A stretch of 32,000 nucleotides of DNA from NCBI GenBank assembly GCA_964480775.1, contig CAYZRF010000007.1:1-32000 (forward strand), written 5' to 3'. The stretch comes from an uncultured Nitrososphaerota archaeon. Lineage in GTDB: Archaea > Korarchaeota > Korarchaeia > Korarchaeales > Korarchaeaceae. The translations under genes were made by a program, and so were the position numbers. Numbering within the stretch: the stretch's first letter is position 1; the number at the start of each line of letters is the position of its first letter. The notes under the pieces were generated by a model that was not told where the DNA came from, searched no databases, and worked only from the letters and a program-made list of their open reading frames with translations. Of the stretch, positions 3,402-27,076 are shown piece by piece.

Positions 3402-3410
3402 GGTTCTCCC

Positions 3411-4475: not shown

Positions 4476-4496
4476 TCGAGGTGATTAGTGTAGTTG

Positions 4497-4506: not shown

Positions 4507-4527
4507 GACATCCCTCTATATTGTTAG

Positions 4528-5547: not shown

Positions 5548-5551
5548 TCAA

Positions 5552-6718
5552 TTGGAGGTTCTTTTCATTGCAAATGGGATAACATCTGAATCTGGGACTC
5601 AAGTAATTGGAGGAGGAGAGGTTAGGTTTATAGAGATAGCGAAAAGATGGAAAAAGAAGGGAATAGATGTTCAAGTATTAACAACAGGGGCTGGAGTGGA
5701 ACTTTGCGAGAAACTCGGGTTAAAAGCGAGTTTTCACATTATTTCCACAGGAAATAGCACGTTTACGGATTACGCAATGACTTTCTTGAGATCTAGGTTT
5801 AAACTTCCTATCAAAGAGTTCAACGGAGTACTGTACTCAACAACCGAACACTTCTATGACTGCGCTCCAGCGTTTAGACTAAGAAAAAAATCTCTTCTCT
5901 GGGTTGCTGTCGTTCACTGGGTAGCTCCGTTTATCAGAAAAGAGGTTGGCATTATTTCAAGTTCAGTTTTCTACATAAATCAAAGATTGGGATTAAGATA
6001 CGTCAAAGCCAGAGCTGATCAAGTATATGCTGTTTCTAGGATAGTCGCTGAGAAGCTTAGGAACATGGGATTTGGTGATAGAGTAAGACCTGCAGAATGC
6101 GGTGTGAACTACGAGGAAATTAGAGAGATAGCAAGTAAGAATGTTGAGCAACTCTATGATGCCATATATATGAAGAGATTCTATCCTACAAAAGGGATAT
6201 TCGATGCCATTGAAATCTGGAAGTATGTCGTAGAGAAGAAAGAAGACGCAAAGCTAATGTTAGTAGGATTCTCTCCAAAATCCATCTTGAATAAAGTCAT
6301 CTCTATGATAAAAGAGAAAGAATTAGAGGATAATATTACTGTTAGAGGACCGGTTTACAACTTTAAACAAAAGATTCTGCTCTTAAGACAAAGCAAGATG
6401 CTGATCCTACCCAGCTATGAGGAAAACTGGGCAATAGTAGTGGGTGAAGCCTTAGCCTCTGGAATTCCCGTTGTAGCTTACGACCTTCCAGATATAAGGC
6501 CAATTTGGGGAGACAATGTTGTATGGTGCCCTCTAGGGGATAAGAAGGTCTTCTCTAAGGAAGTTTTGAAACTGATTGATAGAGAGGAGTTAAGGGAAAG
6601 CCTAGGGAGGAAAGGAATTGAATTAATGAAGAAATATAGCTGGAATTCAATAGCCGAAAAGGAGCTTCGCTTAATTCAAGATCATTTACGAGCAAGAGAC
6701 TCATATATCGATAGATAG
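5552..6718 (+). CDS. glycosyltransferase family 4-like
   Basis: 388-aa ORF. The TTG start at 5552 lies 4 nt after GAGGTGA, which overlaps the stop of the upstream gene and suggests translational coupling. It carries '...PSYEENWAIVVGEALASGIPVVAYDLPDIRPIW...'. Confidence 0.8.
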   Translation: MEVLFIANGITSESGTQVIGGGEVRFIEIAKRWKKKGIDVQVLTTGAGVELCEKLGLKASFHIISTGNSTFTDYAMTFLRSRFKLPIKEFNGVLYSTTEHFYDCAPAFRLRKKSLLWVAVVHWVAPFIRKEVGIISSSVFYINQRLGLRYVKARADQVYAVSRIVAEKLRNMGFGDRVRPAECGVNYEEIREIASKNVEQLYDAIYMKRFYPTKGIFDAIEIWKYVVEKKEDAKLMLVGFSPKSILNKVISMIKEKELEDNITVRGPVYNFKQKILLLRQSKMLILPSYEENWAIVVGEALASGIPVVAYDLPDIRPIWGDNVVWCPLGDKKVFSKEVLKLIDREELRESLGRKGIELMKKYSWNSIAEKELRLIQDHLRARDSYIDR

Positions 6719-7764
6719 ATCTCGGTTACTTTCTTAATATCTCTGAAAGCCCTAACGTAGTTCTGTGCTTCTATAGCCAATCTTCTAGCTAATTCTCTAT
6801 TTGTAAGAAGCCTAAGAATGGCTTCAGCAAACCCCTCTACATCTCCAGTTTCAATGTATATGGCCGAATTTGGTCCGATGCACGAGACGTTCCACTTCTG
6901 GTTTGCACTAACTATCGGCTTTCCGATACAAGCCGCTTCAAGCAGGCTATAGCCCGCATTACCCGGAGCTACAAAGACAGAAGCGCCCCTAATCAGGTTC
7001 AGAGCATCTTCTCTCGAAACTGATCCAACAAAATCCACAAAATCCAAGACTTCAAGACTTTTAGCCAGCTTCTTAAGGAGCTTAAGCTGAGGTCCTCCTC
7101 CAGCGACCACGAATTTAACTTTAACTTTTCGGAGAACAAGTGGAATTGCCCTTACAAAGCTTTCAGGCCCTTTTACGGGTAAAAGCCTCCCTAGATAAAG
7201 AACATAGCTTCCGTCGGGGTTCTCCTGGATTGAACTACACTTGATACCGTGAGGAATTGTAACTATCCCTTCTTGACGGAATTTACTTAATATTTCAAAA
7301 GCCTCCTCGGTGGGGGCTACGGCAACATCTGCAGACTTTATGACATAACCAAACAGGCTGCGGTACAAGAGAGGTCTCAAAACCTTTATGTACCATCTTT
7401 CTTGAAAGCTTCTACCGACATTATGGGCAGTTAGAACGAGAGGAATTTTCCCTTTTTTTGAGGCAAGGGCTGCTATTACTGAAGTCAAATATTCCTGACC
7501 ATGTACATGGATCACATCGTGCTCTTTGCTTAACTTAAAGAAGGAGCGGGGAGAGGGAAAAGGATTGGGAATGGGTGGAAGGGGTCTGAAAGAGGAGAAT
7601 GCATGGACTTCTATACCGTCAACCTCCTTTGGAACTTTACTACATGTATAAACAACAGGCTCATGTCCCATCTTTAGGAGTTGTCTACAGAGTTCGTAGA
7701 CATGAATTTCAACTCCAGCATTAACTTCAGGTACGAAATATGGAGTGACGTGTATTATCCTCAT
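6682..7764 (-). CDS. glycosyltransferase family 4-like
   Basis: 360-aa ORF. Its ATG overlaps the stop of the upstream 859-aa gene (ATGA at 7761-7764). It carries 'YVLYLGRLLPVKGP' and '...GNAGYSLLEAACIGKPIVSANQ...'. Its 3' end overlaps the convergent gene 5552..6718 by 37 nt. Confidence 0.8.
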   Translation of the reverse strand: MRIIHVTPYFVPEVNAGVEIHVYELCRQLLKMGHEPVVYTCSKVPKEVDGIEVHAFSSFRPLPPIPNPFPSPRSFFKLSKEHDVIHVHGQEYLTSVIAALASKKGKIPLVLTAHNVGRSFQERWYIKVLRPLLYRSLFGYVIKSADVAVAPTEEAFEILSKFRQEGIVTIPHGIKCSSIQENPDGSYVLYLGRLLPVKGPESFVRAIPLVLRKVKVKFVVAGGGPQLKLLKKLAKSLEVLDFVDFVGSVSREDALNLIRGASVFVAPGNAGYSLLEAACIGKPIVSANQKWNVSCIGPNSAIYIETGDVEGFAEAILRLLTNRELARRLAIEAQNYVRAFRDIKKVTEIYLSIYESLARK

Positions 7765-10340
7765 TCTTTAACCCTTCTCCTTCTAAACTCGATGTAGATG
7801 GCTGCTGGAAGAGAAATTATGAGACTCATTATTGTGAGCCCTTCGCTTAGAGCCACGTAGCCCAGCTTCTCAAATCTTACCTCGATATCAAAGCTCCCAG
7901 AGGTTTCTGGAAAGATCAACATCATGCCAGGTCCTGCCTTAAATATCTTTAGCCTCTTGTCTCCGAGATAGGCCGACCATCCCTTGTAATAGCTTATCTT
8001 TACGAAGAGAGCATCATCAGCTTCCGCTCCATTTACATGGATTGTCAGCCTTTCAGGCATGAGATAATCAAAGTTCAAAGTAGCACTCGACTTTGGACCC
8101 TTTTCGGAAACTGCTTTGATCATCTCTTCTATAAGAAGAGACTCTTCACGATTCAAGTGATATACGGCATGGTAAGGCAGATTCAAACCAGTCCATAAGA
8201 CCTTTCCATCACCATATTCCATGACTGCGGCTAAGACCGCTTTGTCCTCATCGTAAATAAGAGGAATAGCACCCCCGCGCAGGCTTTCATTTATCGTGTA
8301 TGATATGCCGTACTCTCCTTTGGTGAACAATGAAGTGTAAACAGGTCTCGATGTCCAGTTTCCCACTAAACTTAAGTTGAAATTGCTGTTTCTCGTCCAA
8401 CAATCAGTTATTGGGAAAGGTTCTTCAAGGCCTGTTGAAGCGCCTCCGTGAGGTAGATCTCCCGTATCAAGTATCACCGAGCCCCCGCGTCTCACGTATT
8501 CCCTAAGCTTATCATAGTAATTGTTCTCGTTCAGATACCTTATTCCAAAAAGGTAAAGAACATCAAACTTCGATAGGTTTTCGAGAGATTGGACATCAAC
8601 GAACTCTCCGCCATAAACTAGCAACACATCTTCGGCTCCAGTCGGAGAGATCGCAGCGAAGGTGCGCTGATAATCTGCAAAACTACCGAAGACCATGACT
8701 TTTATCGTATCAGATCCTATTAGTTCAACTAAGGAGGAATTGAAGTTCTCTACTTCATAGAGAAAGAGGAAATCAGAGACCCCTACAAGGCCCTCTCCAA
8801 ACCTAGGATTGTAAAAGAACCTAACATTGTACTGATTTGAAAAATATCTCAAATACGATGGGTCCGACAGAAATAAGAGATAATACCAGAAGGTATAAGC
8901 AAAATCGTTAATCATTTCAACTTGCAGGCTTCCTCCGCTCAAACCTACGTCTGTATAAAGATCAAGCCTCCAAATCCACTCTATCATATCTGTAGCAAGT
9001 CTTTCTCCTTTTCTGGCGTTGTTCCTCAACCATAACATATCTGGCGGGATTTCGGTCTCTATTAGTTTGTGGTGAGGAGCAATATTCACAAAAACCTCTC
9101 TTATCGCAAAGAAGGATGCTGAGACAAGTATAAGCACTAAAAGAATTGCGAATTTCTTCTTATAGGAGGATAGTACCTTCTGGGTGAGATAACCTGCAAT
9201 TAGAGCTGAAAACAAGGAAAAATACGGGGAAAACCTATTTGGCAGAGGAAAAGGGACTTTTAAAATCGGGAAAAGGAGCACAATGAAACTAATTATGAAA
9301 CCCACAGCAGAAAGCTTAGAATAGTCAGCTTTTTTGTCTTTGACAAGAATTGGCAACCCGATAAACGCCAGAGCTATCTGACCTGTGCCTGGAGACCACA
9401 AGTTCCTCTCATAATTAATTCCAAATATCCTCTTTAGGTGATCAAGGATTAACTCGCTCTTGGGTGGGGCGCCAGCTGGCAACAGCCCTATCTGCCAACC
9501 ACGAGTAACTTGAGAATAGCCTCCCTCGATAAAGAAGGGGATCCACCACCAGGCCGATAGCCCAAAACCGACAAGAATTATGCCCGCAAGAGCCTTTGGT
9601 AGGCGTAGAGTGTACTCAGGAAGTTTTGCTCCGGGCTCAATTTTAATGAAGAGCTCTGGTTTCATTATAACCATCAAAACTGAGAAAATTAAGAGAAGAA
9701 GAACAGATATGAAGGCGTCGTGAAAATGGGACAGGGATGTTGCAGCGAAAAGAGCTCCGCCAACTAACATATCTACAGTAGACTGTGTTTCAATAGCTCT
9801 AAGGAGAAAGTAGAAAGTTCCTATGAATAGAAAAACCCCGGTTATCATAGGAATTGCTCCTACATTCCAGAAAGAGTATAGATTGTATGAAAAAGTGAAG
9901 AAAATTGAAGACGCGAGAGCACCGGTTTTTCCTAGCCCAAGCCTTCTTGATAGGAGATAAAGGAAGGCAGATCCCATACCAAAAAAGAGATAAGTGTAAA
10001 CCCTGTAAGCTTGAAAAACATGGATCCTTAGGATCCATCCTATAAAGGCCATAGCTATGTGTGAGAAGGGGGGATAAAACCTTAGGGCAGGACAACCGAA
10101 AAACCAACCATCATTCCATTGAGGTAGCCCAGGGAGGTACCTCATTATCTTGTTGACGAGTGACATATGCATAAGGGGCGATCCTTCCCAAGAGGCCCAT
10201 TTCGGAATTCCTGGAAATACTATGCTAGCGGTGATCGCCGAGACAAGAAATGAAATTATTACTAGAATAGCATCCAAAGGTACCTTTCTTGTCCTCATTT
10301 TACCACCCTCTCGCTTAGAGCCTTTCCTAACTTCAACCAT
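7761..10340 (-). CDS. large polytopic membrane protein, GT-C-like (PTPS-related/DUF2298-like) putative glycosyltransferase, with a soluble C-terminal domain and terminal TM anchor
   Basis: 859-aa ORF. Its ATG at 10340 overlaps the end of the upstream GT2 gene by 8 nt. The N-terminal ~430 aa contain many hydrophobic helices. The first loop reads '...WNDGWFFGCPALRFYPPFSH...', as I recall for the '6-pyruvoyl-tetrahydropterin-synthase-related' membrane family. The C-terminal ~400 aa are soluble, and the protein ends with the TM segment LTIMSLIISLPAAIYIEF followed by RRRRVKE. It sits inside a GT operon. Confidence 0.55.
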   Translation of the reverse strand: MVEVRKGSKREGGKMRTRKVPLDAILVIISFLVSAITASIVFPGIPKWASWEGSPLMHMSLVNKIMRYLPGLPQWNDGWFFGCPALRFYPPFSHIAMAFIGWILRIHVFQAYRVYTYLFFGMGSAFLYLLSRRLGLGKTGALASSIFFTFSYNLYSFWNVGAIPMITGVFLFIGTFYFLLRAIETQSTVDMLVGGALFAATSLSHFHDAFISVLLLLIFSVLMVIMKPELFIKIEPGAKLPEYTLRLPKALAGIILVGFGLSAWWWIPFFIEGGYSQVTRGWQIGLLPAGAPPKSELILDHLKRIFGINYERNLWSPGTGQIALAFIGLPILVKDKKADYSKLSAVGFIISFIVLLFPILKVPFPLPNRFSPYFSLFSALIAGYLTQKVLSSYKKKFAILLVLILVSASFFAIREVFVNIAPHHKLIETEIPPDMLWLRNNARKGERLATDMIEWIWRLDLYTDVGLSGGSLQVEMINDFAYTFWYYLLFLSDPSYLRYFSNQYNVRFFYNPRFGEGLVGVSDFLFLYEVENFNSSLVELIGSDTIKVMVFGSFADYQRTFAAISPTGAEDVLLVYGGEFVDVQSLENLSKFDVLYLFGIRYLNENNYYDKLREYVRRGGSVILDTGDLPHGGASTGLEEPFPITDCWTRNSNFNLSLVGNWTSRPVYTSLFTKGEYGISYTINESLRGGAIPLIYDEDKAVLAAVMEYGDGKVLWTGLNLPYHAVYHLNREESLLIEEMIKAVSEKGPKSSATLNFDYLMPERLTIHVNGAEADDALFVKISYYKGWSAYLGDKRLKIFKAGPGMMLIFPETSGSFDIEVRFEKLGYVALSEGLTIMSLIISLPAAIYIEFRRRRVKE

Positions 10341-11013
10341 ATAAACGCCACTTTAGCAGGGAAAAAAACATCTTAAACGGATCTCTCCAAACGCTGACTC
10401 TAGAAGAACCCCTATAAACGTATTTTACTGGAACATAAGAAATGGAAAATCCCTTCTTAGATGCCTTGACTAGAATCTCAGCATCTATCTCAAATCCATC
10501 TGATTTAATGGGCCAGATCTCTTTAATTACCTCTCGTCTAATGGCTTTCAGACCCGATTGCGGATCCAAGAAATCTCTTCCAAATAGAACTCTTAGAACA
10601 AGTCTGTATAGTGAACTCAGGATTTTTCTAAGCACAGATCTCTTAACATCCACTCTTTGGGCTACCACCAAATCAGCCTCTCCTCTCAAGATCTTTTCAA
10701 CCATCTCAGGTATTTTCTCGGGGGGATACTCCAAGTCCGCATCAAGTACAACTATTATTTCCCCCTTGGCCTTTTCCAAACATCTCTTTATGCCAAAGCC
10801 CTTCCCTTTCCTCTCTTTAAAGCTTAACGAATGAACAGCGTAATGTTCTCTCGCAAGTCGTTCTATGATCTGAGGGGTTCTATCAGAACTTCCTTCCTGC
10901 TCGAGAAATATTTCGAAGTCATATCCTTTTGAGGAAAGTACCTCATAAACTCGTTGAAAGCACTTTTCTACCGTTTTTTCCTCGTTGTAAGCGGGAATTA
11001 TCACAGAGATCAT
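10333..11013 (-). CDS. GT2 family glycosyltransferase, dolichyl-phosphate hexose synthase-like (DPM1/AglJ-AglD class)
   Basis: The ORF track begins at TTG 11070. I prefer ATG 11013, which gives MISVIIPAYNEEKTVEKC..., the canonical GT2 N-terminus. It also carries 'IIVVLDADLEYPPEKI' (DxD). It is small and GT-A-like, as in Dol-P-sugar synthases. Confidence 0.8.
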   Translation of the reverse strand: MISVIIPAYNEEKTVEKCFQRVYEVLSSKGYDFEIFLEQEGSSDRTPQIIERLAREHYAVHSLSFKERKGKGFGIKRCLEKAKGEIIVVLDADLEYPPEKIPEMVEKILRGEADLVVAQRVDVKRSVLRKILSSLYRLVLRVLFGRDFLDPQSGLKAIRREVIKEIWPIKSDGFEIDAEILVKASKKGFSISYVPVKYVYRGSSRVSVWRDPFKMFFSLLKWRLYG

Positions 11014-11015
11014 GA

Positions 11016-11914
11016 TCAACGCCTCTTTTGATTCACGTATAATAACAAGTGGATTGCCACGATGGAACAAGGAAAAGGGACATTTCGGAGATAAAAGTTC
11101 TACTAGTGGTGTACGGACCCTTCGTATCTTTGACGAAGAATCCCTGGCTGGTTCTTACCATTATGTGCACATCTTGGTCTTGAAATTCTATGTCGTCTAG
11201 TTTTGCTCCAATCACAATGCTTGTTCCTGAAACCTGAACGTAAGTGGTTGAGACCACTTGCCAAGAGGAACCGGTCCAGCTATACAGGTTCCCATCAGAA
11301 CTCAATTTGTAGTCATATCCGTAGCTTCCTATGCTTGGACCTCCAGCTTTGGTGTCTAAGTAAACATCGTAGAGATATAAAATAGTGCTTGGTGCAGCCA
11401 CCTCAGCCAGCCTGAAGAAAACGTGAGTTCCATTGTTAGTCAAGTAAAGTGCCTTGTCATCCACAGCGGCTGGTGAAGCATCGTCTATCGGATCAGATCC
11501 GAACTGATACCAGTCGGATGGCCATGCTAGGGAGTTATCGATATTCGTTGATATAATCACAGAGTCTTGAACTCCGTAGGTTGAGTTAACAGCCGTTAGC
11601 GTAACTTGAACATTACCAGATATAGAAGAAGGCAAGATAAGCTTGACAATAAGCGTAGCAATCCCTCCAGAAGCTACGCTTACATCTGTATAGTAATTAT
11701 CCCAGCTAACTCCATTGGAGCTATATGCGACGTGGACATCTCCCTCGTTAAATCCGTCTGTGTCCTGCCATAGGTCAACTTCGATGGTTTTAGTTGAAGA
11801 TACATTGAAGCTAAAACTCATCTCAGAGGGGCCCGTGTTGATGATATATACGTTATATGAAATGTTTGAGCCAGCTGAGCAGGAAGAGGATTGATCAGGT
11901 CTAAAAAAGTCTGC
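11016..11914 (-). repeat. copy A of a ~0.9-kb duplicated gene segment encoding the shared C-terminal module of the two surface proteins
   Basis: Long identical runs are shared with copy B. One 41-nt run, gaaacctgaacgtaagtggttgagaccacttgccaagagga, occurs at 11229-11269 and 12996-13036. 'cgtctatcggatcagatccgaactgataccagtc' and 'acaggttcccatcagaactcaa' are also present in both copies. Confidence 0.85.
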
Positions 11915-12503
11915 TGTGTAATTCACCTCTACCCAAACCTGGGTACATCTTGCCTCGGTAGTAGACGCCCCTCTTAGGTCAACACCAGCCTCCAGAGAAT
12001 CGATGTAATTCCAACTCCAAGGCTCTCCCGTACTGGGATTTGTGGTCCAAGTTCTGTAGTATGTAGTCCAGGAACTCGACAGAGTCCTACGATCTTCATT
12101 AATGTTAAAGATGCTGGGAAAATCAGTTGAACCGACCCTCAAAACTGGTCTAGTAAATACAAGCAATCCAGTCCCACTTTTCCGACATCTAACATAAACA
12201 GTTACTGAATTAATGATTCCAGATCCTTGAGAATGATTTTGGAGACTATATGTATCCCGTCCATAGGGATAAGGAGTAGTCGTGTAATAAACGTATGTGG
12301 AATCCTCATCAGGCATAGTTTCATCAACGCACTCCCAGTTTTCATTGCCGCTTGGATAAGGATTTAGAAGGTACCAACTTCCATTTCCGTCTGGCCTCAA
12401 AATCTCAGTATCTGGCTTCCCTATTATTTCTATTCTTAAATGACAAGTTGTTTCGATAAAAATTAGAAAAAGCAGAATAAATGTGAGAAAAAAATCGTCT
12501 CAC
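11016..12503 (-). pseudogene. secreted surface-protein paralog, disrupted by two 1-nt frameshifts (or a recoded gene); the intact central ORF is 11033..12400 (455 codons)
   Basis: GTG at 12503 lies 7 nt after AAGGAGG and encodes MRR. A T7 run follows (A7 on the plus strand, 12488-12494). With T6 the frame would continue MRRFFLTFILLFLIFIETTCHLRIEIIGKPDTEILRPDGNGSWY..., a signal peptide joined to the 455-codon ORF. At the 3' end, around 11062/11063, one base is missing relative to the paralog. The restored frame reads ...LFLVP(I)VAIHLLLYVNQKRR* and stops at 11016, aligning with PIATILLLVYISKKRSK* of the 1025-aa protein. Confidence 0.7.
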
Positions 12504-12778
12504 CCGGGACCCTCCTTATAGGATGTTTGCCAGATCCGCTCATGGTTTGAGCATAAGCACCCAGACCTTTCACGAAACTGACATAAATTCCTTATTGCCC
12601 CTGAATATTATTTTTTGTATGTAAGCGGGTAATAACTATTTCTATTTTATGATATCTTTGTTTTCTCAGATGTAATTTAAACGTTTTTCGAGGGCTTATA
12701 GATCCTCTTGGTAAAGGAAATTAAAGTCAAAGCTTCAAAATCCTGAGACGTAAACTTATTCCTCAAGTCTCGCTTTTT

Positions 12779-13705
12779 CTATTTGGATCTCTTTTTACTT
12801 ATGTACACAAGCAACAGAATGGTAGCGATTGGGACGATAAATAGAGGCATCTCAAATATGAACGTTCTCGTTGTGGTATATGGGCCTTTTTCATCCTTAA
12901 GGACTGTTCCTTCATAGGTTCTCACAAGTATGTGCACGTCTTGATCCTCAAATACCATGTCACTGAGGTTAGCTCCAATCACAATGCTTGTTCCCGAAAC
13001 CTGAACGTAAGTGGTTGAGACCACTTGCCAAGAGGAGCCAGTCCAGTTGTACAGGTTCCCATCAGAACTCAACTTGTAGTTATAAGTGTAATTTCCTATG
13101 TTTTGACCTCCCGTTCTTGTGTCCATGTATACTTCATATCGATAAGAGACAGTACTTGGCGTTGCCGCCTCAGCCAGCCTGAAGAAAACGTGGGTTCCAT
13201 TGTTAACTGTGTAAAACGACTTGTCATCCACGGCTGGAGGAGAAACGTCGTCTATCGGATCAGATCCGAACTGATACCAGTCAGATGGCCATGCCAGGTA
13301 ATTATCGATTATCGTTGATATAAGAACAAAGTCGTGAGCACCAGAACCCGAACCAGTTGCTGTCAGATTCACTTGGACCGTGCCTGATGCTGATGAAGGT
13401 AGGATTATCGTTACAATAAGCGTTGCGCTAGCACCAGAGGAAACACTAATGTCCGGTTCACCATTTGAGTTGCTGTCGCTGTAAACAGAATCCCATACCC
13501 CATCTCCATCTGCGTCATATGCTATGTGCGTGTCTCCGCCATCCATCCAATCTGTATCAACCCAGATGTCTACCCCAACTGACAGATTAGAGCTTCCTTG
13601 TAGGTCAAATACATCGTCTGAGGATCCAGTATTGATTAAGTAAACGTTATACGATACATTTGAGCCCGCGGCTGCTGAGAATGTCTGATTGGGCTTGAAC
13701 TCCAC
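12779..13705 (-). repeat. copy B of the duplicated C-terminal module segment
   Basis: See copy A. At the protein level the module runs from GVEFKPNQTFSAAAGSNVSYNVYLINTG to the C-terminus. It aligns with ADFFRPDQSSSCSAGSNISYNVYIINTG to the end of the 455-codon ORF. Confidence 0.85.
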
Positions 13706-15856
13706 TCCTCCTACAACAACTGTGAAAGTGGTCGAACCACAATGGGAAACCCCATTAGTCTCCTTGGACAGAACAACTACGAGGTACTCACCCGTTGGAG
13801 CCGTGGAAGATAGTGGATAATCATACCTAAATATCTTGTAAAGAGAGGGGGAACTTGGATCTGTCGTTTCCAAGGTCATGGTTTGGTTATTCACAGCCTT
13901 AGTGTTGTTGGGGAAGTATATTGTGACCCAGGCCCCCACTATATCGCCAGATCCAAAAGGATCGGTAACGTTGGCCTTGACGACAACGGTTTCCCCTGGA
14001 TTAAAGGTGGATTTCTCCGTATTCGTCTGGTCATATGTCTTCACCCATTCTAAATTGACGAATGTGGAGGTAGGTATCTCAATTCTTGAATTGTAGGTCT
14101 GAGAGTTGTAGTAAACCTCAATCCAAGGGGTAGTAAAACCTGACTCTGTAAGAACTTCTACCTTTAGAGTTATGGCATCTCCGCTTGGTATGCTGCTAAT
14201 GCCTGATATCGTGAATGTATACCAGCCAGCACTCGTTATATCGTTAATAGTATCTGAATAAACAGGACTTCCATCGTAAGTTAGGCTTACCCTAACATCA
14301 GGATATAGATACACGAAAAACCATCCAGGATGGGGTACAATGTATAAATTAACAGTTATATCATCTGAAACTATTAAATCTGATGCAAAGGGAGGAGATT
14401 GAGTCCAAGAAGCTGATCCACCGTTGCTTATGCTCTCACTAAGCGAAGAAGTTCCTTCCTGCGTCTTCAATGAGTACCCATTTCGCAAGTAAAGTTGCTT
14501 ATATATTGGATAAGCTCGGGTCTTCAGATTACATATCGGACCAACGGTTTCTGAGGATCCAGTTATGGGAGAAGTGTAAGTGGCCTTTGTTCCCTGGGGT
14601 CCTGGGGGCATGTTTATGGAGAACTGTGAACTCGATGATGGCGTGATTGATACTCTGTACCTCATCTCTGCATACGAGCCAGCAGACAGGGACCCAACAC
14701 TCCAATCGATCCTTCTATTAACGGAATCATAGGTGGCACTACCTGCTGTGGTTGTTAGAGAGTCCTGCCATGTCACATCTGATGATACGTAATCTACAAC
14801 AGCAACATTGTTTAGCGTTAAGGAAGTGGGATTGCTTATTCTAACCCTCACTTCAAATGTGCTAGTAATGCCAACGCGAGGAGGATCGGGTCCAGAGACC
14901 GTTATGTAACTCTTTGAGAGGATGGGTTTTGGAGGTGCTTCTCCTGAGTCCGTTGGTAGGTATATTTTGATAGGATTTCCATCATAATCATAGGCTTCGA
15001 CTACACCGTAGTTGCCCCCAGATCCGTAATATGTGATGTTTACCTCTAGGTGCCACAAGCCATAATCATCAGACTCTGTATCTTGCGTCCAACCAGAAAT
15101 TGTGTGAGAATTCCAGGCAGCATTATTTGAAAGTTCAGTGTCATCAAATTCATCGGAGAAACTACCAGATGGACTTGTGACTCTTATGTAACCTTGGCTA
15201 CCGCTAGCATCTGTGTCCCAATCCCACTCTCTTATGCTGAACTGGCAACCCTGATGAACATAGAGGTAAAGGTCATATTTCCTTGACTGGGAGGGGTTGG
15301 TGCCGACGCTAGCCCTGTAGAAGTAGATGTTCAGACCGTTTGCTCTTAGTCCAAAGTAGTTAATGTCATCTCCAGAAGTGACAGCACTCGAAGAATCTAC
15401 TCTTAACTCCCAGACACCACTTGAGGGGTTGGAGACCTGGTAGAAATCCCACCAAACCCCATCGCTACCTGAAGGACCCGAGGAATCTGCAGTAATTGAT
15501 GTTACCTGTGCTCCGCTGGGATCATACAACGTGAATTTCGTTGAGGTATCCCAGGAAAAACCTCTACGCCTGTCCCTGTTAGCTGATTCTTCAGCACTTC
15601 CTCCCAAACCTACATCTGGATCAAATATGTCTATGTCAAGTACTGAGGTTCCAGGAGGGACTTCTATGTAAAACGAATAGTAGGTATTTGCTCCATCGCT
15701 TGTGCTGTAATAGTCTCCATATTCTGATGGAGCCCCAGAACCCTGAACGCAGAGCCACTGTCCATTTAAAGAAGACGAAGTTGAGACGTGTTCAAAAGGT
15801 ATAGATGCTAGAAGCATCAGAACTAGTAAAATTAACGTTGATACGAGCCTTCTCAA
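12779..15856 (-). CDS. large secreted surface (S-layer/adhesin-like) glycoprotein candidate with a DUF11-type repeat and a C-terminal motif+TM+basic sorting signal
   Basis: 1025-aa ORF. The TTG start at 15856 is preceded by GAGG. The signal peptide is MRRLVSTLILLVLMLLASIPFEHV. The protein is Ser/Thr/Gly/Asp/Tyr/Trp-rich and beta-type. A DUF11-like segment reads 'VVDYVSSDVTWQDSLTTTAGSATYDSVNRRIDWSVGSLSAGSYAEMRYRVSITP'. I count about a dozen N-x-S/T sequons, mostly in the C-terminal half. The C-terminus is ...TTRTFIFEMPLFIVPIATILLLVYISKKRSK. Confidence 0.8.
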   Translation of the reverse strand: MRRLVSTLILLVLMLLASIPFEHVSTSSSLNGQWLCVQGSGAPSEYGDYYSTSDGANTYYSFYIEVPPGTSVLDIDIFDPDVGLGGSAEESANRDRRRGFSWDTSTKFTLYDPSGAQVTSITADSSGPSGSDGVWWDFYQVSNPSSGVWELRVDSSSAVTSGDDINYFGLRANGLNIYFYRASVGTNPSQSRKYDLYLYVHQGCQFSIREWDWDTDASGSQGYIRVTSPSGSFSDEFDDTELSNNAAWNSHTISGWTQDTESDDYGLWHLEVNITYYGSGGNYGVVEAYDYDGNPIKIYLPTDSGEAPPKPILSKSYITVSGPDPPRVGITSTFEVRVRISNPTSLTLNNVAVVDYVSSDVTWQDSLTTTAGSATYDSVNRRIDWSVGSLSAGSYAEMRYRVSITPSSSSQFSINMPPGPQGTKATYTSPITGSSETVGPICNLKTRAYPIYKQLYLRNGYSLKTQEGTSSLSESISNGGSASWTQSPPFASDLIVSDDITVNLYIVPHPGWFFVYLYPDVRVSLTYDGSPVYSDTINDITSAGWYTFTISGISSIPSGDAITLKVEVLTESGFTTPWIEVYYNSQTYNSRIEIPTSTFVNLEWVKTYDQTNTEKSTFNPGETVVVKANVTDPFGSGDIVGAWVTIYFPNNTKAVNNQTMTLETTDPSSPSLYKIFRYDYPLSSTAPTGEYLVVVLSKETNGVSHCGSTTFTVVVGGVEFKPNQTFSAAAGSNVSYNVYLINTGSSDDVFDLQGSSNLSVGVDIWVDTDWMDGGDTHIAYDADGDGVWDSVYSDSNSNGEPDISVSSGASATLIVTIILPSSASGTVQVNLTATGSGSGAHDFVLISTIIDNYLAWPSDWYQFGSDPIDDVSPPAVDDKSFYTVNNGTHVFFRLAEAATPSTVSYRYEVYMDTRTGGQNIGNYTYNYKLSSDGNLYNWTGSSWQVVSTTYVQVSGTSIVIGANLSDMVFEDQDVHILVRTYEGTVLKDEKGPYTTTRTFIFEMPLFIVPIATILLLVYISKKRSK

Positions 15857-15863
15857 GAATCCT

Positions 15864-16481
15864 CTACTCCCCCGGCTTTCTTTTTGCTTCTGGATTTGAA
15901 TACCGAAGGTAAAGTGAAAAGAACCCTTTCTTAGGAACCATAGGTGCTTTAGAAGTAATTACCACCTTAGAGCCCTCTATACTCACATTGAACGCGTCTT
16001 CAGGAGAAATTTTGAGTTCTTTTACCTCTGCTCCCTTTGGCAAGACAAATGTTATGGACAGATTCGTTGAAACACCTGTTAAACCTATTTTTTCCAATAA
16101 AAGGGCGATAGTTGAGGCCATATCCTCTTGGACGACGAAATCAATCCCGTCGCAAGGAGGAGAATGTCCAGTTAGCTTCAAGGATACTGATGCCTCTCCG
16201 CCTTTGAAGCTAAAGCTGACAAATTCACTTGATACCTTCAACCTCTCTGACAAAAGAGATTCGGGTTTCTTGGAGCTTCCTAGCATTTTACTAAATGCCA
16301 TCGCAGAGTCTCCAGATAATTTGATGTCTACGAAGGCTTTGGTAGACTTTTGGCTAAAAACAAATTTCAGATCGACCGAGATGGATGATGCCAATGGCTG
16401 TTGAGCATTCATCCTTACCGAGATCCCGGCGACTATCGAAAGTAACGCAATTATTATGAGAGCAGAGGCAGTTAACTTCAT
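15864..16481 (-). CDS. secreted or membrane-anchored protein of unknown function, encoded between the archaeosortase-like gene and its putative cargo
   Basis: The ORF track starts at TTG 16499. I prefer ATG 16481, which gives MKLTASALIIIALLSIVAGISV..., a signal or anchor helix, because a TATA-like box sits about 27 nt upstream. The stop lies 7 nt before the start of the 1025-aa gene. I recognise no family. Confidence 0.6.
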   Translation of the reverse strand: MKLTASALIIIALLSIVAGISVRMNAQQPLASSISVDLKFVFSQKSTKAFVDIKLSGDSAMAFSKMLGSSKKPESLLSERLKVSSEFVSFSFKGGEASVSLKLTGHSPPCDGIDFVVQEDMASTIALLLEKIGLTGVSTNLSITFVLPKGAEVKELKISPEDAFNVSIEGSKVVITSKAPMVPKKGFFSLYLRYSNPEAKRKPGE

Positions 16482-16504
16482 GATAAGTAGGTAGTCCAAA
16501 ATGA

Positions 16505-16512
16505 TTATTTAA
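16505..16512 (-). promoter_or_regulatory. TATA-like box (TTAAATAA on the minus strand) with an upstream purine-rich BRE-like AAAAG
   Basis: The minus strand reads ACAAAAGCTTAAATAATCAT (16520->16501). The box centre is about 27 nt from ATG 16481. It lies in the only sizeable gap (137 nt) of the 20172->12779 gene string. Confidence 0.4.
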
Positions 16513-16636
16513 GCTTTTGTAACTATTTTGGTTCTCGATAATAACCAGTTCTAAATAGCAGGGTATTCTATGCTCCTTTAGAACCGACTTAGGGCTATGA
16601 GGAGATAAGAAACGACTAAATATTCATATTTAGCAT

Positions 16637-17401
16637 TCAAGAAGCCTCCGTCAGTTGCCCAATCGCAATCCCAGCAAAAGTTGCTAAGTAGATGAAATCT
16701 ATGAAAGTCCCAGCTAAGTAGTGGAGGAGCAGAAATGCTAGGGCTCCTACGTGGTAGAGGGTTGCTATTGTTACTGCAAGCCTCAGAATGTTCCAAGCAA
16801 CGGAAAAGAGCATAGTAGCACCCAACCAGAATAGTTTTGTGTGGAGAGGCCCTTTAAGACCAAAGACTCCTATAGAAAACGCAATCGAGATCAAAATGAA
16901 CATTAAGACCCCTGAACAAGACCAATCAACGGTTATCCAAGTTAATCTGTGGGGAATACCCCAAAATGCATTGTAGAGCAGTGCCGTTCCTGCCAACGGA
17001 GCTATTATGAACCAGAGGATCTTTATGGGGAAGGGGATTTTCTTCAGTTTCCAGATTATGAACGAGGCTATAGCTAGGTTTATCAGAATAAATACGACGG
17101 TAGATGGATCGGGCCTCTTATAAGGAACTGGAAGCTCAAAAGTCGGACCACCAGCCATGTATTTTAGTGGGAAGAGTTCAAAAAGCGATCTCGCCCTTCC
17201 CATATCGAACAGTCTATATGGAACATGGGCTATGTCTAGGAGCTTTGCTATGCTCCTTGCCTGAAACCACCAATATCCTAGGAAATTTGTACCTACTAAG
17301 TAAGTAGCAAGAGTCGAAAGAAGGAGACCTACTAAAAAATGAGCCTTTTGAAAACCAGGAAACCAGAAGGCTCTTTTTAGCTCCTCGCCTATACTCTCCA
17401 A
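16637..17401 (-). CDS. exosortase/archaeosortase-family integral membrane protein (putative transpeptidase)
   Basis: 254-aa multi-TM ORF. The TTG start lies 7 nt after GGGTGA and overlaps the upstream gene by 13 nt. The C-terminal half reads ...ITVDWSCSGVLMFILIS...(45 residues from the Cys to the Arg)...VAWNILRLAVTIATLYH...LLLHYLAGTFIDF. This reproduces the conserved Cys (xCSGx), Arg (NxxR) and His order and spacing that I remember from EpsH/XrtA ('vaeaCSGlr ... aNglR ... H..yG') and ArtA. Confidence 0.65.
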   Translation of the reverse strand: MESIGEELKRAFWFPGFQKAHFLVGLLLSTLATYLVGTNFLGYWWFQARSIAKLLDIAHVPYRLFDMGRARSLFELFPLKYMAGGPTFELPVPYKRPDPSTVVFILINLAIASFIIWKLKKIPFPIKILWFIIAPLAGTALLYNAFWGIPHRLTWITVDWSCSGVLMFILISIAFSIGVFGLKGPLHTKLFWLGATMLFSVAWNILRLAVTIATLYHVGALAFLLLHYLAGTFIDFIYLATFAGIAIGQLTEAS

Positions 17402-18066
17402 GCATCTGTCACCCTAAGTCTCTCTGGCAGCACTTTTTTGATAGAATCAACCACCTTGACTCCTTCTACTGCATAAACCTTGGTCTTTCCTAAGGCTCCA
17501 GGTTCGATATAAACCGTCTTCCCAGATACTAAGCCACCACCTTCCTCGCCCATTCCTATTACAACACCCTTAGCAACATATATTGATCCTCTAGCATCAA
17601 CGCAGTTGCCTATAATTGTCCCTTCTCCAATAGCAAGCTCTCCTTCTACAACTATGGACTTTCCAATTCCGTTCTTAGGTCCTATAACTGCATCTCCTTT
17701 CACATGAATTCCACCTTTTACTGCGACTTCTTCCTTGGAGAAGAAATTTCCTAAGACTATGAGGTTGTAAGGAATGAATTCCTTGGCTGGTACTGTGACA
17801 TCTCCCTTAATTCTGATGGTTTCAGCACCTTGAAGCCACACTTTCTGGGATTTTAAGTAAGATGGCTTCTTGTTTCTTTCTAGAGCTTTAATAGCCTCTT
17901 CAATGAGCCCCAACTCCTCCGCCCTATGTAGAATCAGCAGCTCTGGGATGTTTATCCCGTATTTAAGAAAGATCTCCTCTCTTAACATCTCAATTGTTAG
18001 CTCGCCAAATTTCTGCTTAATCAGGTTGTCAAGGGCTGAAGACCACTCTATCTCCTTTGTCATCAT
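17389..18066 (-). CDS. beta-helix repeat protein, bactofilin-like (polymer-forming cytoskeletal/DUF583-like), with an N-terminal helical domain
   Basis: The ORF track starts at TTG 18096. I prefer ATG 18066 (MMTKEIEW...), which lies 8 nt after GAGGGA. The C-terminal ~120 aa read 'VKGGIHVKGDAVIGPKNGIGKSIVVEGELAIGEGTIIGNCVDARGSIYVAKGVVIGMGEEGGGLVSGKTVYIEPGALGKTKVYAVEGVKVV'. This shows the periodic hydrophobic/Gly pattern of a bactofilin-type beta-helix. Confidence 0.5.
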   Translation of the reverse strand: MMTKEIEWSSALDNLIKQKFGELTIEMLREEIFLKYGINIPELLILHRAEELGLIEEAIKALERNKKPSYLKSQKVWLQGAETIRIKGDVTVPAKEFIPYNLIVLGNFFSKEEVAVKGGIHVKGDAVIGPKNGIGKSIVVEGELAIGEGTIIGNCVDARGSIYVAKGVVIGMGEEGGGLVSGKTVYIEPGALGKTKVYAVEGVKVVDSIKKVLPERLRVTDAWRV

Positions 18067-18076
18067 TTTACATCCC

Positions 18077-18733
18077 TCACCCTTCAAACATTCCAATAAG
18101 CTTTGAGGAATTGATTACCTCAATTCCATGTTTGGCGCTTGCCTCTCCTATCTCGCAACCTTCTGCTGCCTCAATGGTCTTTTCCGAGGTAACTTTTCTT
18201 ACGCTACAACCCTTTGAAATGACTATCTTGCCTTTGGCGTCGATCCACTCATTGACTTTATTGTTACTATCTAGAAAGATGTCTGAGTCGGAAGCAAGGA
18301 AACTTATCTCGCAATTCTGTCCCACCTTGATGTTTCCAGTTGAATAGGCTCCTCCAGTAATCTTGCAATTTCTACCAATAGAAAGATCTCCTATCACAAT
18401 AAGGAGTTCTTTCATTTCGAAGTTGTCAGGAATGTGCGTGTCTCCATAAATTAACCTAAAGTAGCCAAGATCTGAGTGAAACTTAGGTTTTTGAGTTAAA
18501 AACGTCTCTGGCGACATCCCTCCGCCATCTCTCGAGATGAAGCCTAGTTCTACGGCTGGTTCAACCCTTTCTCTTAGAAGCAGAGCTTCCTCGTTGTCAC
18601 AAATGCATCTGTCTAGGTTTATGTAAAGAGGCCCTGGATCAGCAGCTCTGTTGTACTCAATAAATCCAAGGACAAAAGGTACCGAAGCTATAGCACCGAA
18701 AAGGGCCAGTAACAAAATGTATCCGAGAATCAT
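18077..18733 (-). CDS. membrane-anchored beta-helix repeat protein (N-terminal TM plus a bactofilin/hexapeptide-like C-terminal domain)
   Basis: 218-aa ORF. Its ATG overlaps the GT2 stop (ATGA at 18730-18733). The N-terminal TM is MILGYILLLALFGAIASVPFVLGFI. The C-terminal region reads 'IGDLSIGRNCKITGGAYSTGNIKVGQNCEISFLASDSDIFLDSNNKVNEWIDAKGKIVISKGCSVRKV..EAAEGCEIGEASAKHGIEV', with about 6-residue periodicity. Confidence 0.5.
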   Translation of the reverse strand: MILGYILLLALFGAIASVPFVLGFIEYNRAADPGPLYINLDRCICDNEEALLLRERVEPAVELGFISRDGGGMSPETFLTQKPKFHSDLGYFRLIYGDTHIPDNFEMKELLIVIGDLSIGRNCKITGGAYSTGNIKVGQNCEISFLASDSDIFLDSNNKVNEWIDAKGKIVISKGCSVRKVTSEKTIEAAEGCEIGEASAKHGIEVINSSKLIGMFEG

Positions 18734-20115
18734 TCTTTTCTCACCTTCTTTCCTCCACCATTTAGGTACCTTAGTCCATTTCCGTTGTGCTGGGTCTTGT
18801 GCCAGTTATTCTTGTTATTGTTATGGTTGTTCTTGTTATTGTTCAGGTTGTTGTAATAGAGCAGGCCATTTCCAGCTTTTTTCGTTTTATGCCACTTCTT
18901 TGATTGATGCTTTCTCCTATGCAACAGAATTGCTTCGAAGAATGCAACAGTGCAGACCCAAGCATTGTGTACCACGAGTATAAGCATCGCTGGAAGAAGC
19001 CATGAGGCCCTTTTCCTACCGTCCAAGTAAGCACTGGCTACCACTTCGTTGAACATGGCGAAGTTGCCTAGGTTGGTGTAAGAGATGCTCATTGGTATTG
19101 CTATGAAGAATGAGGACCATGGCTGAGGAACAAATAGGTAAGACACTACCCCTAAAACCCAGCCCACAAAAACGAAAACTGGAAGCACAAAGGTTCCTAA
19201 GAGAAGAACACCACTAACCTTCTGCCAAAACGTAAGGAACGGGGATTTTATAACGGAGGTAAGGTGCTCAAACAAACACTGATCGTGGCCTATCGCCCAC
19301 CTTCTTAGCTGCTTACTTCTTTGCTTCCACGTAGGAACGACTTCCTCATAGGCTTCTGCTGCATTTATGTATACAAGCTTCCAACCCCCTAGGAAAATTC
19401 TGAAAGATAAATCAGTATCCTCAGCTAATTTTGTCTCGTCCCATCCTCCCAACCGCTTAAGGATGTCCCTCCTGAAGCCTCCAACCGTTCCACCATAAAG
19501 AGTTATCAGGTCTAAGTTGTACCTAGCCTGCTGGTCAACTTGATATCCAGCAGACCTTTCTAGGTCCAGAAGCCTAGTTGTTAGGCTATCGGGGGAGTTT
19601 GCTGGTACCACTCTCCCCATAACGGCACCAACTTCGGGATCATAGAACGGAGCAACAAGCCTCTTGATACAGTCCTTTGGTGGGAGGTAGTCTGCGTCAA
19701 ATGTAATTATGATATCGTTGTGTGCAAATCCTAAGGCTACGTTCATTGCTTCTGGCTTTCCATTTCCTCCGCTCTCAGTTCTATGCACCGCCTTTATGAA
19801 CGGATACTTCTCTGCAAACTCGTCAATTATTTCCCCGGTCCTGTCCTCTGAGCAGTCATTTAGTGCAATAACTTCGTACATCCCATTTTCTTTTGGATAA
19901 TCCATCTCTACAAGCCTTTGAAGAATGTGAGGAGCAACTGCCTCCTCATTATGCATCGGCACTATTATGCTGACGCTTGGTAGGTAATGCCCAGCAAGCT
20001 CCTGGTAAGCTCTTCTCTGCTTACCATAGAGCCTGTTCCAAGTGAATTTATAGTGCCTAATGGCGTAAGCCGTCATGATTGTAAAAAGAATCATGAAAGC
20101 AATTTCTAATAGCAT
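18730..20115 (-). CDS. processive family-2 glycosyltransferase (cellulose/chitin/PNAG/hyaluronan-synthase class) with an Asn/His/Lys-rich repeat tail
   Basis: The longest ORF begins at TTG 20172. I prefer ATG 20115 (MLLEIAFMILFTIMTAYAI...), an N-terminal TM preceded by GGGTG. Motifs are SVSIIVPMHNEE, NDCSEDRT (D), ITFDADY (DxD), GGTVGGFRR, AEDTDL (TED-like) and QRSKQLRRW (QxxRW), followed by C-terminal TM helices. Confidence 0.85.
   Translation of the reverse strand: MLLEIAFMILFTIMTAYAIRHYKFTWNRLYGKQRRAYQELAGHYLPSVSIIVPMHNEEAVAPHILQRLVEMDYPKENGMYEVIALNDCSEDRTGEIIDEFAEKYPFIKAVHRTESGGNGKPEAMNVALGFAHNDIIITFDADYLPPKDCIKRLVAPFYDPEVGAVMGRVVPANSPDSLTTRLLDLERSAGYQVDQQARYNLDLITLYGGTVGGFRRDILKRLGGWDETKLAEDTDLSFRIFLGGWKLVYINAAEAYEEVVPTWKQRSKQLRRWAIGHDQCLFEHLTSVIKSPFLTFWQKVSGVLLLGTFVLPVFVFVGWVLGVVSYLFVPQPWSSFFIAIPMSISYTNLGNFAMFNEVVASAYLDGRKRASWLLPAMLILVVHNAWVCTVAFFEAILLHRRKHQSKKWHKTKKAGNGLLYYNNLNNNKNNHNNNKNNWHKTQHNGNGLRYLNGGGKKVRKE
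18733..18894 (-). repeat. in-frame tandem repeat (two ~30-codon units) and Asn-codon low-complexity tract in the GT2 tail
   Basis: The protein reads WHKTKKAGNGLLYYNNLNNNKNNHNNNKNN then WHKTQHNGNGLRYLNGGGKKVRKE. The two TGG codons are at 18894-18892 and 18804-18802. The plus-strand DNA shows a repeated 'ttcttgttattgtt'. Confidence 0.8.
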
Positions 20116-20272
20116 GCTACCGCACCCTGTGATACCGACACCAATGACTTGGCTATCTTCGAATTTTCTCAACTAAGACTTAAAAAATGTGCTGTTGGCC
20201 CGTAAATTTTGCAAGTACAGCAATCAACCGATTAAATCGCGAAAACACTTTGTAGGCGTAAGATCTAAACTG

Positions 20273-27073: not shown

Positions 27074-27076
27074 AGT

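Follow-up and report, generated by a model that had tools for sequence, protein, structure and literature searches.

In exopolysaccharide (EPS) loci of the PEP-CTERM/EpsH (XrtA) type in Gram-negative bacteria, an exosortase is found inside a polysaccharide locus together with tail-tagged secreted proteins, and the polymer is made by a Wzx/Wzy-type route. The XrtG system of Firmicutes consists of XrtG (TIGR03110), a Firmicu-CTERM cargo and two associated glycosyltransferases. Archaeosortases have been described for a subset of Euryarchaeota, and the substrates of ArtA carry a tripartite C-terminal signal whose motif directly abuts the helix (archaeal cell-surface review). Here, we analyzed a 32,000-nucleotide stretch of DNA from an uncultured hot-vent archaeon placed in the Korarchaeota by GTDB (contig CAYZRF010000007.1 of assembly GCA_964480775.1, positions 1 to 32,000; hereafter, the window). 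Its minus strand carries a gene for a protein of the exosortase/archaeosortase superfamily (the sortase-like protein) beside genes for a synthase-like family-2 glycosyltransferase (GT2), two beta-helix proteins and a large surface protein. The sortase-like, GT2 and beta-helix genes form a core that recurs in related loci, numbered L001 onward, and a cargo gene with a conserved C-terminal tail accompanies this core in one clade. We favor the reading, with about an even chance of its being right, that the locus encodes a polysaccharide machine of the synthase type to which a dedicated sortase-and-cargo system has been added. The features that bear on this reading are listed below (aa, amino acids; TM, transmembrane).

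18730..20172, minus strand: membrane GT2, cellulose-synthase-like and PgaC/IcaA-like, with QLRRW, DAD and EDTD (Pfam/NCBIfam)
18733..18897, minus strand: basic, Asn-rich C-terminal GT2 tail in which the motif W-x-K-T-x-[RHK]...G-N-G-L-x-Y occurs twice
18077..18733, minus strand: beta-helix protein 1, with an N-terminal TM anchor (TM-like segment at residues 6-24)
17389..18066, minus strand: beta-helix protein 2, soluble; a hexapeptide-repeat beta-helix preceded by an N-terminal helical domain
16637..17401, minus strand: archaeosortase/exosortase-family membrane protein of 254 aa (TIGR04178; Cys162, Arg207, His227)
16505-16512, minus strand: TATA-box-like TTAAATAA, read by eye, 27 nt upstream of ATG 16481
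15864..16481, minus strand: small protein with a hydrophobic segment at its N-terminus; no Pfam/NCBIfam match
12779..15856, minus strand: secreted multi-domain surface protein of 1025 aa, the presumed cargo, with hydrophobic segments at both termini
12782..13711, minus strand: conserved cargo module (residues 716-1025), two tandem beta-sandwich domains plus the tail
12782..12871, minus strand: tripartite C-terminal signal of the 1025-aa protein, TRTFIFEMPLFIVP, a hydrophobic helix and KKRSK (the protein ends ...IFEMPLFIVP, TM, KKRSK)
11033..12470, minus strand: frameshifted cargo paralog, a probable pseudogene or homopolymer assembly error

An open reading frame (ORF) scan returned ten minus-strand ORFs between 6682 and 20172 and reproduced the gene positions, overlaps, gaps and motifs given for this strand in an initial annotation of the window. 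The GT2 and beta-helix protein 1 genes share an ATGA overlap (18730-18733), the beta-helix protein 2 and sortase-like genes overlap by 13 nt (17389-17401), and 7 nt (between 15856 and 15864) separate the gene for the small secreted protein from that for the 1025-aa protein. The 10-nt gap at 18066/18077 is valid if beta-helix protein 2 starts at ATG 18066 rather than at TTG 18096, the start in the mechanical ORF list; ATG 18066 is backed by nine homologues, all of which start with MMxxEVxWSS. The true start of the GT2 is probably ATG 20115. A gap of 137 nt follows the sortase-like gene and contains TTAAATAA, a plausible archaeal TATA box with a spacing compatible with a leaderless message, and possibly an internal promoter of the two cargo genes. 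The promoter that had been placed in this gap is plausible as judged by sequence. A sigma-70 promoter/terminator scan, a method unsuited to archaea, found fewer sites than in shuffled controls and was set aside.

The sortase-like protein and its described relatives

The 254-aa protein scored 32.3 bits against the signature model TIGR04178 (cutoff 23) over residues 157-243, and a Kyte-Doolittle scan, which is crude, showed six TM-like segments. Cys162 (DW[ST]CSG), Arg207 (WNxxR) and His227 (HY) were invariant in 12 of 12 sequences of 46-87% identity, and this proposed catalytic triad was also retained by the homologues P0022 and P0024 and in loci L007 and L008. Across 37-87% identity, the clade of the window protein strictly keeps C-S-G, N-x-x-R and H-Y. 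The initial annotation had called this ORF an exosortase/archaeosortase, to be withdrawn if models of that family gave no significant hit; with the signature model above its cutoff and the triad invariant, the assignment stands. The narrower models gave lower scores: Pfam Exosortase_EpsH (PF09721) reached 16.5 bits, below its gathering score of 25.7, XrtG reached 16.1 bits (cutoff 102.75) and ArtF 15.7 bits (cutoff 150), and none of the other ArtA-ArtF or XrtA-XrtY models matched at E<=0.1. A precomputed PF09721 match is recorded for the homologues P0009 and P0011, although it is weak for P0009. The family is small: a search of 5.8 billion proteins gave 11 homologue clusters, and its profile retrieved 42 representatives among 1.84 billion, only 9 of them below 1e-30. 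A sequence search of the PDB with the family found nothing. By these matches the protein is a member of the exosortase/archaeosortase superfamily, in a subfamily without a name.

The XrtG system is the closest known precedent. In both cases, a small exosortase-family protein lies beside a single dedicated tail-bearing cargo and family-2 glycosyltransferases. XrtG is also the specific model most often matched by the distant relatives of the window protein (15 of the 41 weaker profile hits, against 13 for ArtF and 7 for ArtC; the general signature matched 23), and the window GT2 matches the XrtG-associated glycosyltransferase model TIGR03111 at 1e-15. However, this last match amounts to 57.5 bits against a cutoff of 363.95, the sortase-like protein is similarly far under the XrtG cutoff, the hosts are archaeal, and the window tail matches no NCBIfam sorting model, a set that should include Firmicu-CTERM. 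To our knowledge, neither beta-helix partners nor a synthase tail of the WxKTxR type has been reported for XrtG systems.

The archaeosortases ArtA-ArtF share with the window protein the superfamily signature and the Cys/Arg/His triad, and the window tail resembles the ArtA signal in having a motif that abuts the helix, followed by basic residues. The differences are that no ArtA-ArtF subfamily cutoff is reached, that the motif is E-M-P-L...P and not PGF or PEF, that the pairing appears to be one sortase with one adjacent cargo rather than one-to-many, that the tight GT2 linkage of the window family is not a known feature of ArtA, and that the present loci come from Korarchaeota-labelled and Bathyarchaeia metagenome-assembled genomes (MAGs). 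Compared with PEP-CTERM/EpsH loci, which likewise place an exosortase among polysaccharide genes and tagged secreted proteins, the window has no PEP motif, its sortase-like protein scores below the Exosortase_EpsH threshold, it has a single neighboring cargo, and its polymer route appears to be synthase-dependent, through a PgaC-like GT2. Full-text searches of an incomplete literature collection found no paper describing the module. The proposal that this is an undescribed archaeal equivalent of such loci holds insofar as no named sortase subfamily or tail model matches; it must be qualified by the close bacterial precedent, XrtG.

A conserved core of sortase-like, synthase and beta-helix genes

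Three components make up the conserved core: the sortase-like protein, a PgaC-like GT2 with the QxxRW motif, and either one or two beta-helix proteins, which may be anchored, soluble or fused. In the close relatives L001, L003, L004, L005 and L009, the whole gene order is kept. Because their housekeeping flanks are kept as well, these loci say little on functional linkage, and the divergent loci are the informative ones. In L002, L007, L008, L010-L014 and L016-L019, the core is present in permuted order and between unrelated flanks:

L002 (sortase 48% identity): sortase-like, GT2, anchored beta-helix, 570-aa soluble beta-helix, 172-aa protein, and the start of a cargo gene at the contig end
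L007/L008 (Bathyarchaeia; 41% / 37% identity): sortase-like, GT2, one anchored beta-helix, cargo of 353-379 aa
L010-L014 and L016-L019 (tblastn 26-39%, profile E 1e-61 to 1e-12): sortase-like, GT2, beta-helix protein(s), usually with 4-nt overlaps

The hosts are Korarchaeota-labelled and Bathyarchaeia MAGs and high-GC contigs without an assigned taxon; the distant loci (L010 onward) have 42-70% G+C, and the window about 35-47%. The permuted gene order supports selection on linkage rather than inherited synteny. The gene order expected for relatives (synthase, two beta-helix genes, sortase-like gene, cargo) was thus borne out as linkage, since the three- or four-gene core and the cargo stay together where the sortase is only 37-48% identical, but not as a fixed order. 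Nor is the 13.5-kb unit of the initial annotation conserved as a whole; the conserved part is the four-gene core plus the cargo. Wherever the context of a related locus is complete, the GT2 gene adjoins the sortase-like one. L015 is the only relative examined without a GT2: at 6995-10746 it carries the bacterial sortase-like relative P0033 (Cys replaced by Thr) and a weakly bactofilin-like beta-helix protein, near genes for SpoIID, an extracytoplasmic function (ECF)-type sigma factor and an amidase. An exosortase-fold protein may thus also pair with a beta-helix protein without a synthase.

The GT2 has QLRRW at residue 288, DAD at 159 and EDTD at about 251, with TM-like segments on both sides, and scores 96 bits for Glyco_trans_2_3 (PF13632) and 94 bits for Glycos_transf_2. 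These motifs and domain scores bear out its annotation as a QxxRW GT2, and by them it would be assigned to the processive, cellulose-synthase-like type. PgaC_IcaA (TIGR03937) is the best named full-length match (7e-38 over positions 26-427), and the protein resembles the poly-beta-1,6-GlcNAc synthases PgaC/IcaA in its QxxRW, DxD and ED motifs and flanking TM helices. In contrast to these synthases, it scores 130.6 bits against the equivalog cutoff of 422.3 and its partners are exosortase-fold and beta-helix proteins; PgaA, PgaB, PgaD and IcaD had no match among the window proteins scanned. Its closest relatives in the PDB are 6yv7, a family-2 glycosyltransferase (2.5e-20), and BcsA (1e-8). With regard to the sugar, UDP-N-acetylglucosamine (UDP-GlcNAc) 2-epimerase genes (Epimerase_2) immediately precede the sortase-like gene in L010 (231-1439) and L017 (8867-9961), both of which are Cys-less, and a cut upstream ORF in L013 (1-1056) resembles this epimerase by eye, without a database record. 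No such gene is present in the window. Because of the epimerase genes in L010, L017 and probably L013, a polymer of the N-acetylhexosamine type (N-acetylmannosamine or N-acetylglucosamine) is hinted at.

Every complete synthase of the family, those of L017 and L018 excepted, ends in a basic tail with the motif W-x-K-T-x-[RHK], often followed by G-N-G-L-x-Y-Y-N and Asn-rich spacers. In L017 and L018, the soluble beta-helix protein carries this motif at its own C-terminus (L017 12685-13290), which suggests that the synthase and the beta-helix protein act at the same site. We also considered whether the number of motif copies equals the number of beta-helix genes; this fits the window clade and L002 (two) and L007/L008 (one), but fails in L010, where a fused double beta-helix protein accompanies one motif. 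In L011, the tail is expanded to a long GNGNG-rich stretch.

Beta-helix protein 1 has one TM-like segment and beta-helix protein 2 has none, in agreement with their annotation as an anchored and a soluble member of a pair. All anchored members in the family alignment share the juxtamembrane motif E-[YW]-x-x-P-x-D-x-G-P-L-x-[IV]-D. Beta-helix protein 2, with 9 homologue clusters as rare as the sortase-like protein, shows an uninterrupted 6-residue periodicity (z 2.6-4.4 at lags 6, 12, 18 and 24), as in the repeats IGPKNG IGKSIV VEGELA IGEGTI IGNCVD, and its His131 is invariant. The weak Pfam and NCBIfam matches of both proteins are confined to left-handed beta-helix or hexapeptide families, with the Hexapep and LbH matches below gathering scores. 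Searched against the PDB, the family profile of protein 1 found LpxA (1.4e-4) and that of protein 2 found LpxA (4r36, 5.7e-5) and QdtC (0.0018); neither profile retrieved a bactofilin chain at E<=10. Likewise, no window protein matched Bactofilin (PF04519) at E<=0.1, and sub-threshold Bactofilin matches appeared in the distant relatives L010 (6e-4), L015 (0.019) and L017 (0.1-0.23), some of which have Hexapep matches of the same kind. An AlphaFold2 (AF2) model of protein 2, built from a 10-sequence alignment, had a mean predicted local distance difference test (pLDDT) of 58, and the best Foldseek match had E >=0.09. Both proteins are best described as putative hexapeptide-repeat, LpxA-like beta-helix proteins; despite the bactofilin-like or cytoskeleton-like label given to them earlier, they are not demonstrably bactofilins. 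They may act as acyltransferases, adaptors or polymers. Since protein 2 lacks a signal sequence and hydrophobic segment and the fused forms have a single N-terminal anchor, both are most likely cytoplasmic. In L010 and L011, two beta-helix units are fused behind one N-terminal anchor, and L007 and L008 have one anchored protein only; these fusion and reduction cases suggest that the two proteins act together. The soluble 570-aa version in L002 (8707-10419) carries a zinc ribbon at its N-terminus and is extended at its C-terminus by a long stretch of acidic, low-complexity sequence, so that the accessory domains flanking the beta-helix differ between loci.

Presumed cargo, putative sorting tail and proposed catalytic cysteine

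The 1025-aa protein is 68-71% identical in L001, L003 and L004, and its matches to MG2, DUF7927 and P-domain-like models are sub-threshold. Only its C-terminal module is common to the minimal cargos of L007/L008 (353-379 aa), the homologues P0062 and P0064, and the paralog in the window. AF2 modelled this module (pLDDT 69) as two beta-sandwiches followed by a membrane helix. Foldseek returned tandem Ig-like proteins (the Vibrio biofilm scaffold RbmA, WxLIP and an S-layer protein), a likeness that must be regarded as generic because the TM-scores are only about 0.25. A word-indexed search with the module found 3 proteins and missed known relatives, and it is thus a weak guide to distribution. 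Homologues of the small protein encoded upstream of the 1025-aa protein, with 44-49% identity, are present in L001, L003 and L004; L002, L007 and L008 lack it, and it is therefore confined to close relatives.

The C-terminal tail consists of I-x-E-[MI]-[PS]-L-x3-P, a TM helix and basic residues, as the initial annotation had read it (motif, TM segment and basic tail), and it is kept between cargos that are 37% identical. The same tail occurs in L001, L004, L005, L007, L008, P0062 and P0064, for example:

Window giant protein: TRTFIFEMPLFIVPIATILLLVYISKKRSK
P0062: SRTFISEMSLFLVPIVATLLVLYVTRKRRR
L007: LRNNIAEMPLMLIPFVTLAVYFAVSGTRKK...
L008: LRNNISEIPLILIPALSFAIYFTISRRTKK...

Six tails were scanned at E<=10 and none matched an NCBIfam sorting-signal model, nor did the full-length cargo. 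The tail would thus be a sorting signal outside the named PGF-, PEF-, PEP- and Firmicu-CTERM models. The cargo paralog downstream (11033..12470) is decayed, as first annotated. One frameshift lies at a T7 run in the signal peptide, just after a GTG start with GGAGG upstream, and the other inside the TM helix of the tail, where the +1 frame reads IVAIHLLLYVNQKRR*. The homologue P0063 is identical to the 455-aa ORF of this paralog, and the public record annotates just that remnant; the intact orthologue P0062 has 512 aa, a signal peptide and a full tail.

Cargo homologues with this tail lie directly downstream of the core in three Cys-intact sub-clades, namely the window clade, L002 and L007/L008, and their N-terminal domains differ. 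Among the loci examined, cargo genes occur only beside the Cys-intact clade; the Cys-less loci with enough downstream sequence (L010, L017 and L018) have no cargo homologue and keep the synthase and beta-helix partners. This pattern fits proteolysis of the neighboring cargo in the window clade. Outside this clade, the homologues P0021, P0023 and P0025-P0028 have F, Q, S, T or R at the position of Cys162, and His227 has often changed as well; Arg207 and Asp235 are near-universal. The Cys-less sortase-like genes still overlap the GT2 start codon, and the exosortase-fold protein may have a Cys-independent role with the synthase, possibly as a second, non-proteolytic function. Because distant XrtG/ArtF-like relatives keep the ECSG motif, the Cys is ancestral and selectively retained in the window clade.

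On the reading of a dedicated sortase-and-cargo system, we infer every catalytic step from the observed family membership, triad, gene linkage, fusions, tail-motif conservation and phylogenetic pattern. The PgaC-like GT2 would polymerize and translocate a sugar polymer, probably of the N-acetylhexosamine type, in a membrane complex with the exosortase-fold protein. The anchored and soluble hexapeptide beta-helix proteins would dock on the cytoplasmic side, perhaps through the WxKTxR tail. The cargo, with its two beta-sandwich domains and variable N-terminal domains, would be exported by Sec and first held by its C-terminal helix, and the Cys/Arg/His sortase-like enzyme would then cut at I-x-E-M-P-L-x3-P and move the cargo onto a lipid or the polymer. 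Outside the cell, a dolichyl-phosphate (Dol-P)-sugar GT2, a GT-C-like protein and family-4 glycosyltransferases (GT4s), described below, may decorate cargo or polymer.

Several observations weigh against this reading. In most of the wider family the Cys is missing, and frequently the His, but the GT2 linkage persists, so the sortase/GT2 pairing may originally have served something other than proteolysis. In a neighbour-joining tree, the Cys-bearing members fall into a single clade, and the link between Cys and cargo may therefore reflect a single evolutionary event. The processivity of the GT2 is not assured, because its match to 6yv7, which we take to be a non-processive N-glycan mannosyltransferase, is at the level of family 2 only. 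The structure models (pLDDT 58 for beta-helix protein 2 and 69 for the cargo module) are of low or moderate confidence. Finally, one MAG (B8_G17) contains two core copies, L003 and L006 (1-2641). In L006, the Cys is intact and a GT4 gene directly follows the sortase-like gene, and the small protein, the cargo, the Dol-P GT2 and the GT-C-like protein are missing; this copy could be a deletion variant, a second strain in the same bin or a true second locus.

The strongest alternative draws on the same observations. The exosortase-fold protein could be a non-proteolytic subunit of the synthase (a scaffold, translocation or lipid-handling partner), and its neighbor a plain TM-anchored matrix or polymer-binding protein that is not cleaved. 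The loss of Cys162 and frequent loss of His227 next to near-universal Arg207 and Asp235, the persistent overlap of Cys-less genes with the GT2 start, the Cys-intact L006 without an adjacent cargo, and the C-terminal TM anchors that are common on archaeal surface proteins, with examples in L017, all agree with it. It leaves unexplained, however, why the window clade so strictly keeps C-S-G, N-x-x-R and H-Y, why the Glu, Leu and Pro at the membrane boundary of the tail survive at 37% cargo identity, which is unusual for a plain anchor, and why ECSG persists in distant relatives if the Cys was not ancestral and selectively retained. On balance we hold this alternative to be unlikely, with a real chance all the same.

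The sortase-and-cargo reading can be extended. Exosortase-fold proteins may be obligate partners of an unrecognised synthase-dependent machine composed of a GT2, the exosortase-fold protein and beta-helix adaptors, with the Cys-intact archaeal clade transferring the C-terminus of the cargo onto the nascent polymer to form a covalent protein-polysaccharide conjugate. We put this forward as a speculation with a small chance of being right; if true, it would name the acceptor of exosortase-type enzymes and explain their place in polysaccharide loci. The new elements described here are an archaeosortase-like subfamily without a name, a new sorting tail and a new set of partners. They extend the range of archaeosortases beyond Euryarchaeota to Korarchaeota-labelled and Bathyarchaeia genomes, and we know of no characterization of the cell envelopes of these groups. 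The tail motif and the four-gene core could serve as annotation models. The Cys-intact and Cys-less relatives form a natural comparison set for exosortase-type function and for the attachment target in polysaccharide loci, and the minimal L007/L008 version, with four genes and a cargo of 353-379 aa, is a compact candidate for heterologous reconstitution.

The glycosyltransferase island and neighboring genes

Downstream of the cargo paralog, further glycosyltransferase genes are found:

10333..11070, minus strand: soluble GT2 of the polyprenyl-phosphate-sugar synthase type (Glycos_transf_2 111 bits)
7761..10340, minus strand: polytopic PTPS_related/YfhO-type protein of 859 aa (PF10131 86.2 bits, gathering 26.4; 2.5e-24)
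6682..7764, minus strand: GT4 glycosyltransferase (Glycos_transf_1 101 bits, Glyco_transf_4 82 bits)
916..6718, both strands: five further GT4-type genes (Pfam), partly conserved in L004 and L005

The first three had been annotated as a coupled trio of a Dol-P-type GT2, a GT-C-like giant membrane protein and a GT4, and their Pfam/NCBIfam matches agree with this, as do the overlaps of 8 nt (10333-10340) and 4 nt (7761-7764). The Dol-P-type GT2 matches the NCBIfam models for AglJ (1e-25), ArnC-like (1.7e-22) and Dol-P hexose transferase (9e-19) proteins, in each case below the equivalog cutoff. The 859-aa protein has at least seven TM-like segments and a YfhO match (0.0018) over about 60 C-terminal residues, and it has neither a relative by sequence in the PDB nor an NCBIfam match. 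It presumably has a GT-C fold, which we take from the Pfam clan of PF10131. The pair resembles CsbB/YfhO-type extracytoplasmic glycosylation systems in that a polyprenyl-phosphate-sugar GT2 gene overlaps a PTPS_related/YfhO-like gene; unlike those systems, its YfhO similarity is limited to this short stretch and it lies outside the conserved core. An XrtG-like trio that included the PTPS_related protein was considered and rejected, on the grounds that this protein has no NCBIfam match and the pair is missing from most related loci.

In L001, the cargo gene (11542-14631) overlaps the Dol-P-type GT2 gene (14628-15317) by 4 nt, and the tblastn matches of the two likewise overlap in L004 and L005. 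The trio is therefore tied to the cargo in the clade of close relatives. Beyond these relatives it was seen only loosely, in L007, and it is best taken as accessory to the conserved core.

These genes raise a second alternative, that the locus is an ordinary protein-glycosylation or S-layer island in which the synthase-like GT2 is non-processive and makes a lipid-linked glycan, the GT4s, the Dol-P GT2 and the GT-C-like protein glycosylate the giant glycoprotein, and the sortase-like gene encodes a general archaeosortase for substrates elsewhere. The island is indeed larger than the 13.5 kb first claimed, with two GT2, six GT4-type and one GT-C-like gene over about 19 kb (916-20172), and among solved structures 6yv7 is closest to the GT2; the overlap of the cargo stop with the Dol-P GT2 start in close relatives and the 12 sequons of the giant protein point the same way. 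On the other hand, 12 sequons compare with 11.5 expected from composition, so that the protein is not sequon-rich as initially described. In addition, the GT2 is linked to sortase-like and beta-helix genes in loci that lack cargo, GT4, GT-C and Dol-P genes, the sortase-like family occurs almost only beside this GT2, and just two ORFs in the window bear the tail motif, both inside the locus. We therefore consider this alternative improbable. Least probable of all is a cytoskeleton-guided assembly in which the beta-helix proteins are bactofilin-type polymers that place synthase and sortase at defined cell sites, since the sub-threshold Bactofilin matches in L010, L015 and L017, and the bactofilins that Foldseek lists among many insignificant matches to the model, stand against the absence of such a match for the window proteins, the preference of both profiles for LpxA-type hexapeptide proteins over any bactofilin chain, the strict 6-residue periodicity, and the invariant His131, which suits an acyltransferase-like site at least as well.

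The MAGs nearest to the window come from Guaymas Basin and bear the label Thermoproteota or 'Candidatus Korarchaeota', and tRNA and Rfam scans of the window were both empty. Housekeeping neighbors at 22832-28456 (an SDH-type ClpP-like protease, a DUF4349 protein and a TldD/PmbA pair) are conserved in close relatives and have no visible relation to the sortase/synthase module. Directly upstream of the synthase, positions 20378-20725 on the minus strand encode a protein of 115 aa that has three hydrophobic segments and matches no family; it occupies the same position in L001 and L003-L005 (67-90% identity) and is absent from the divergent loci. In L004 (2961-4800), an extra partial copy of this gene, together with the first approximately 200 residues of the synthase, abuts a truncated SDH-protease gene, an arrangement suggestive of a local duplication, a rearrangement or a chimeric assembly.

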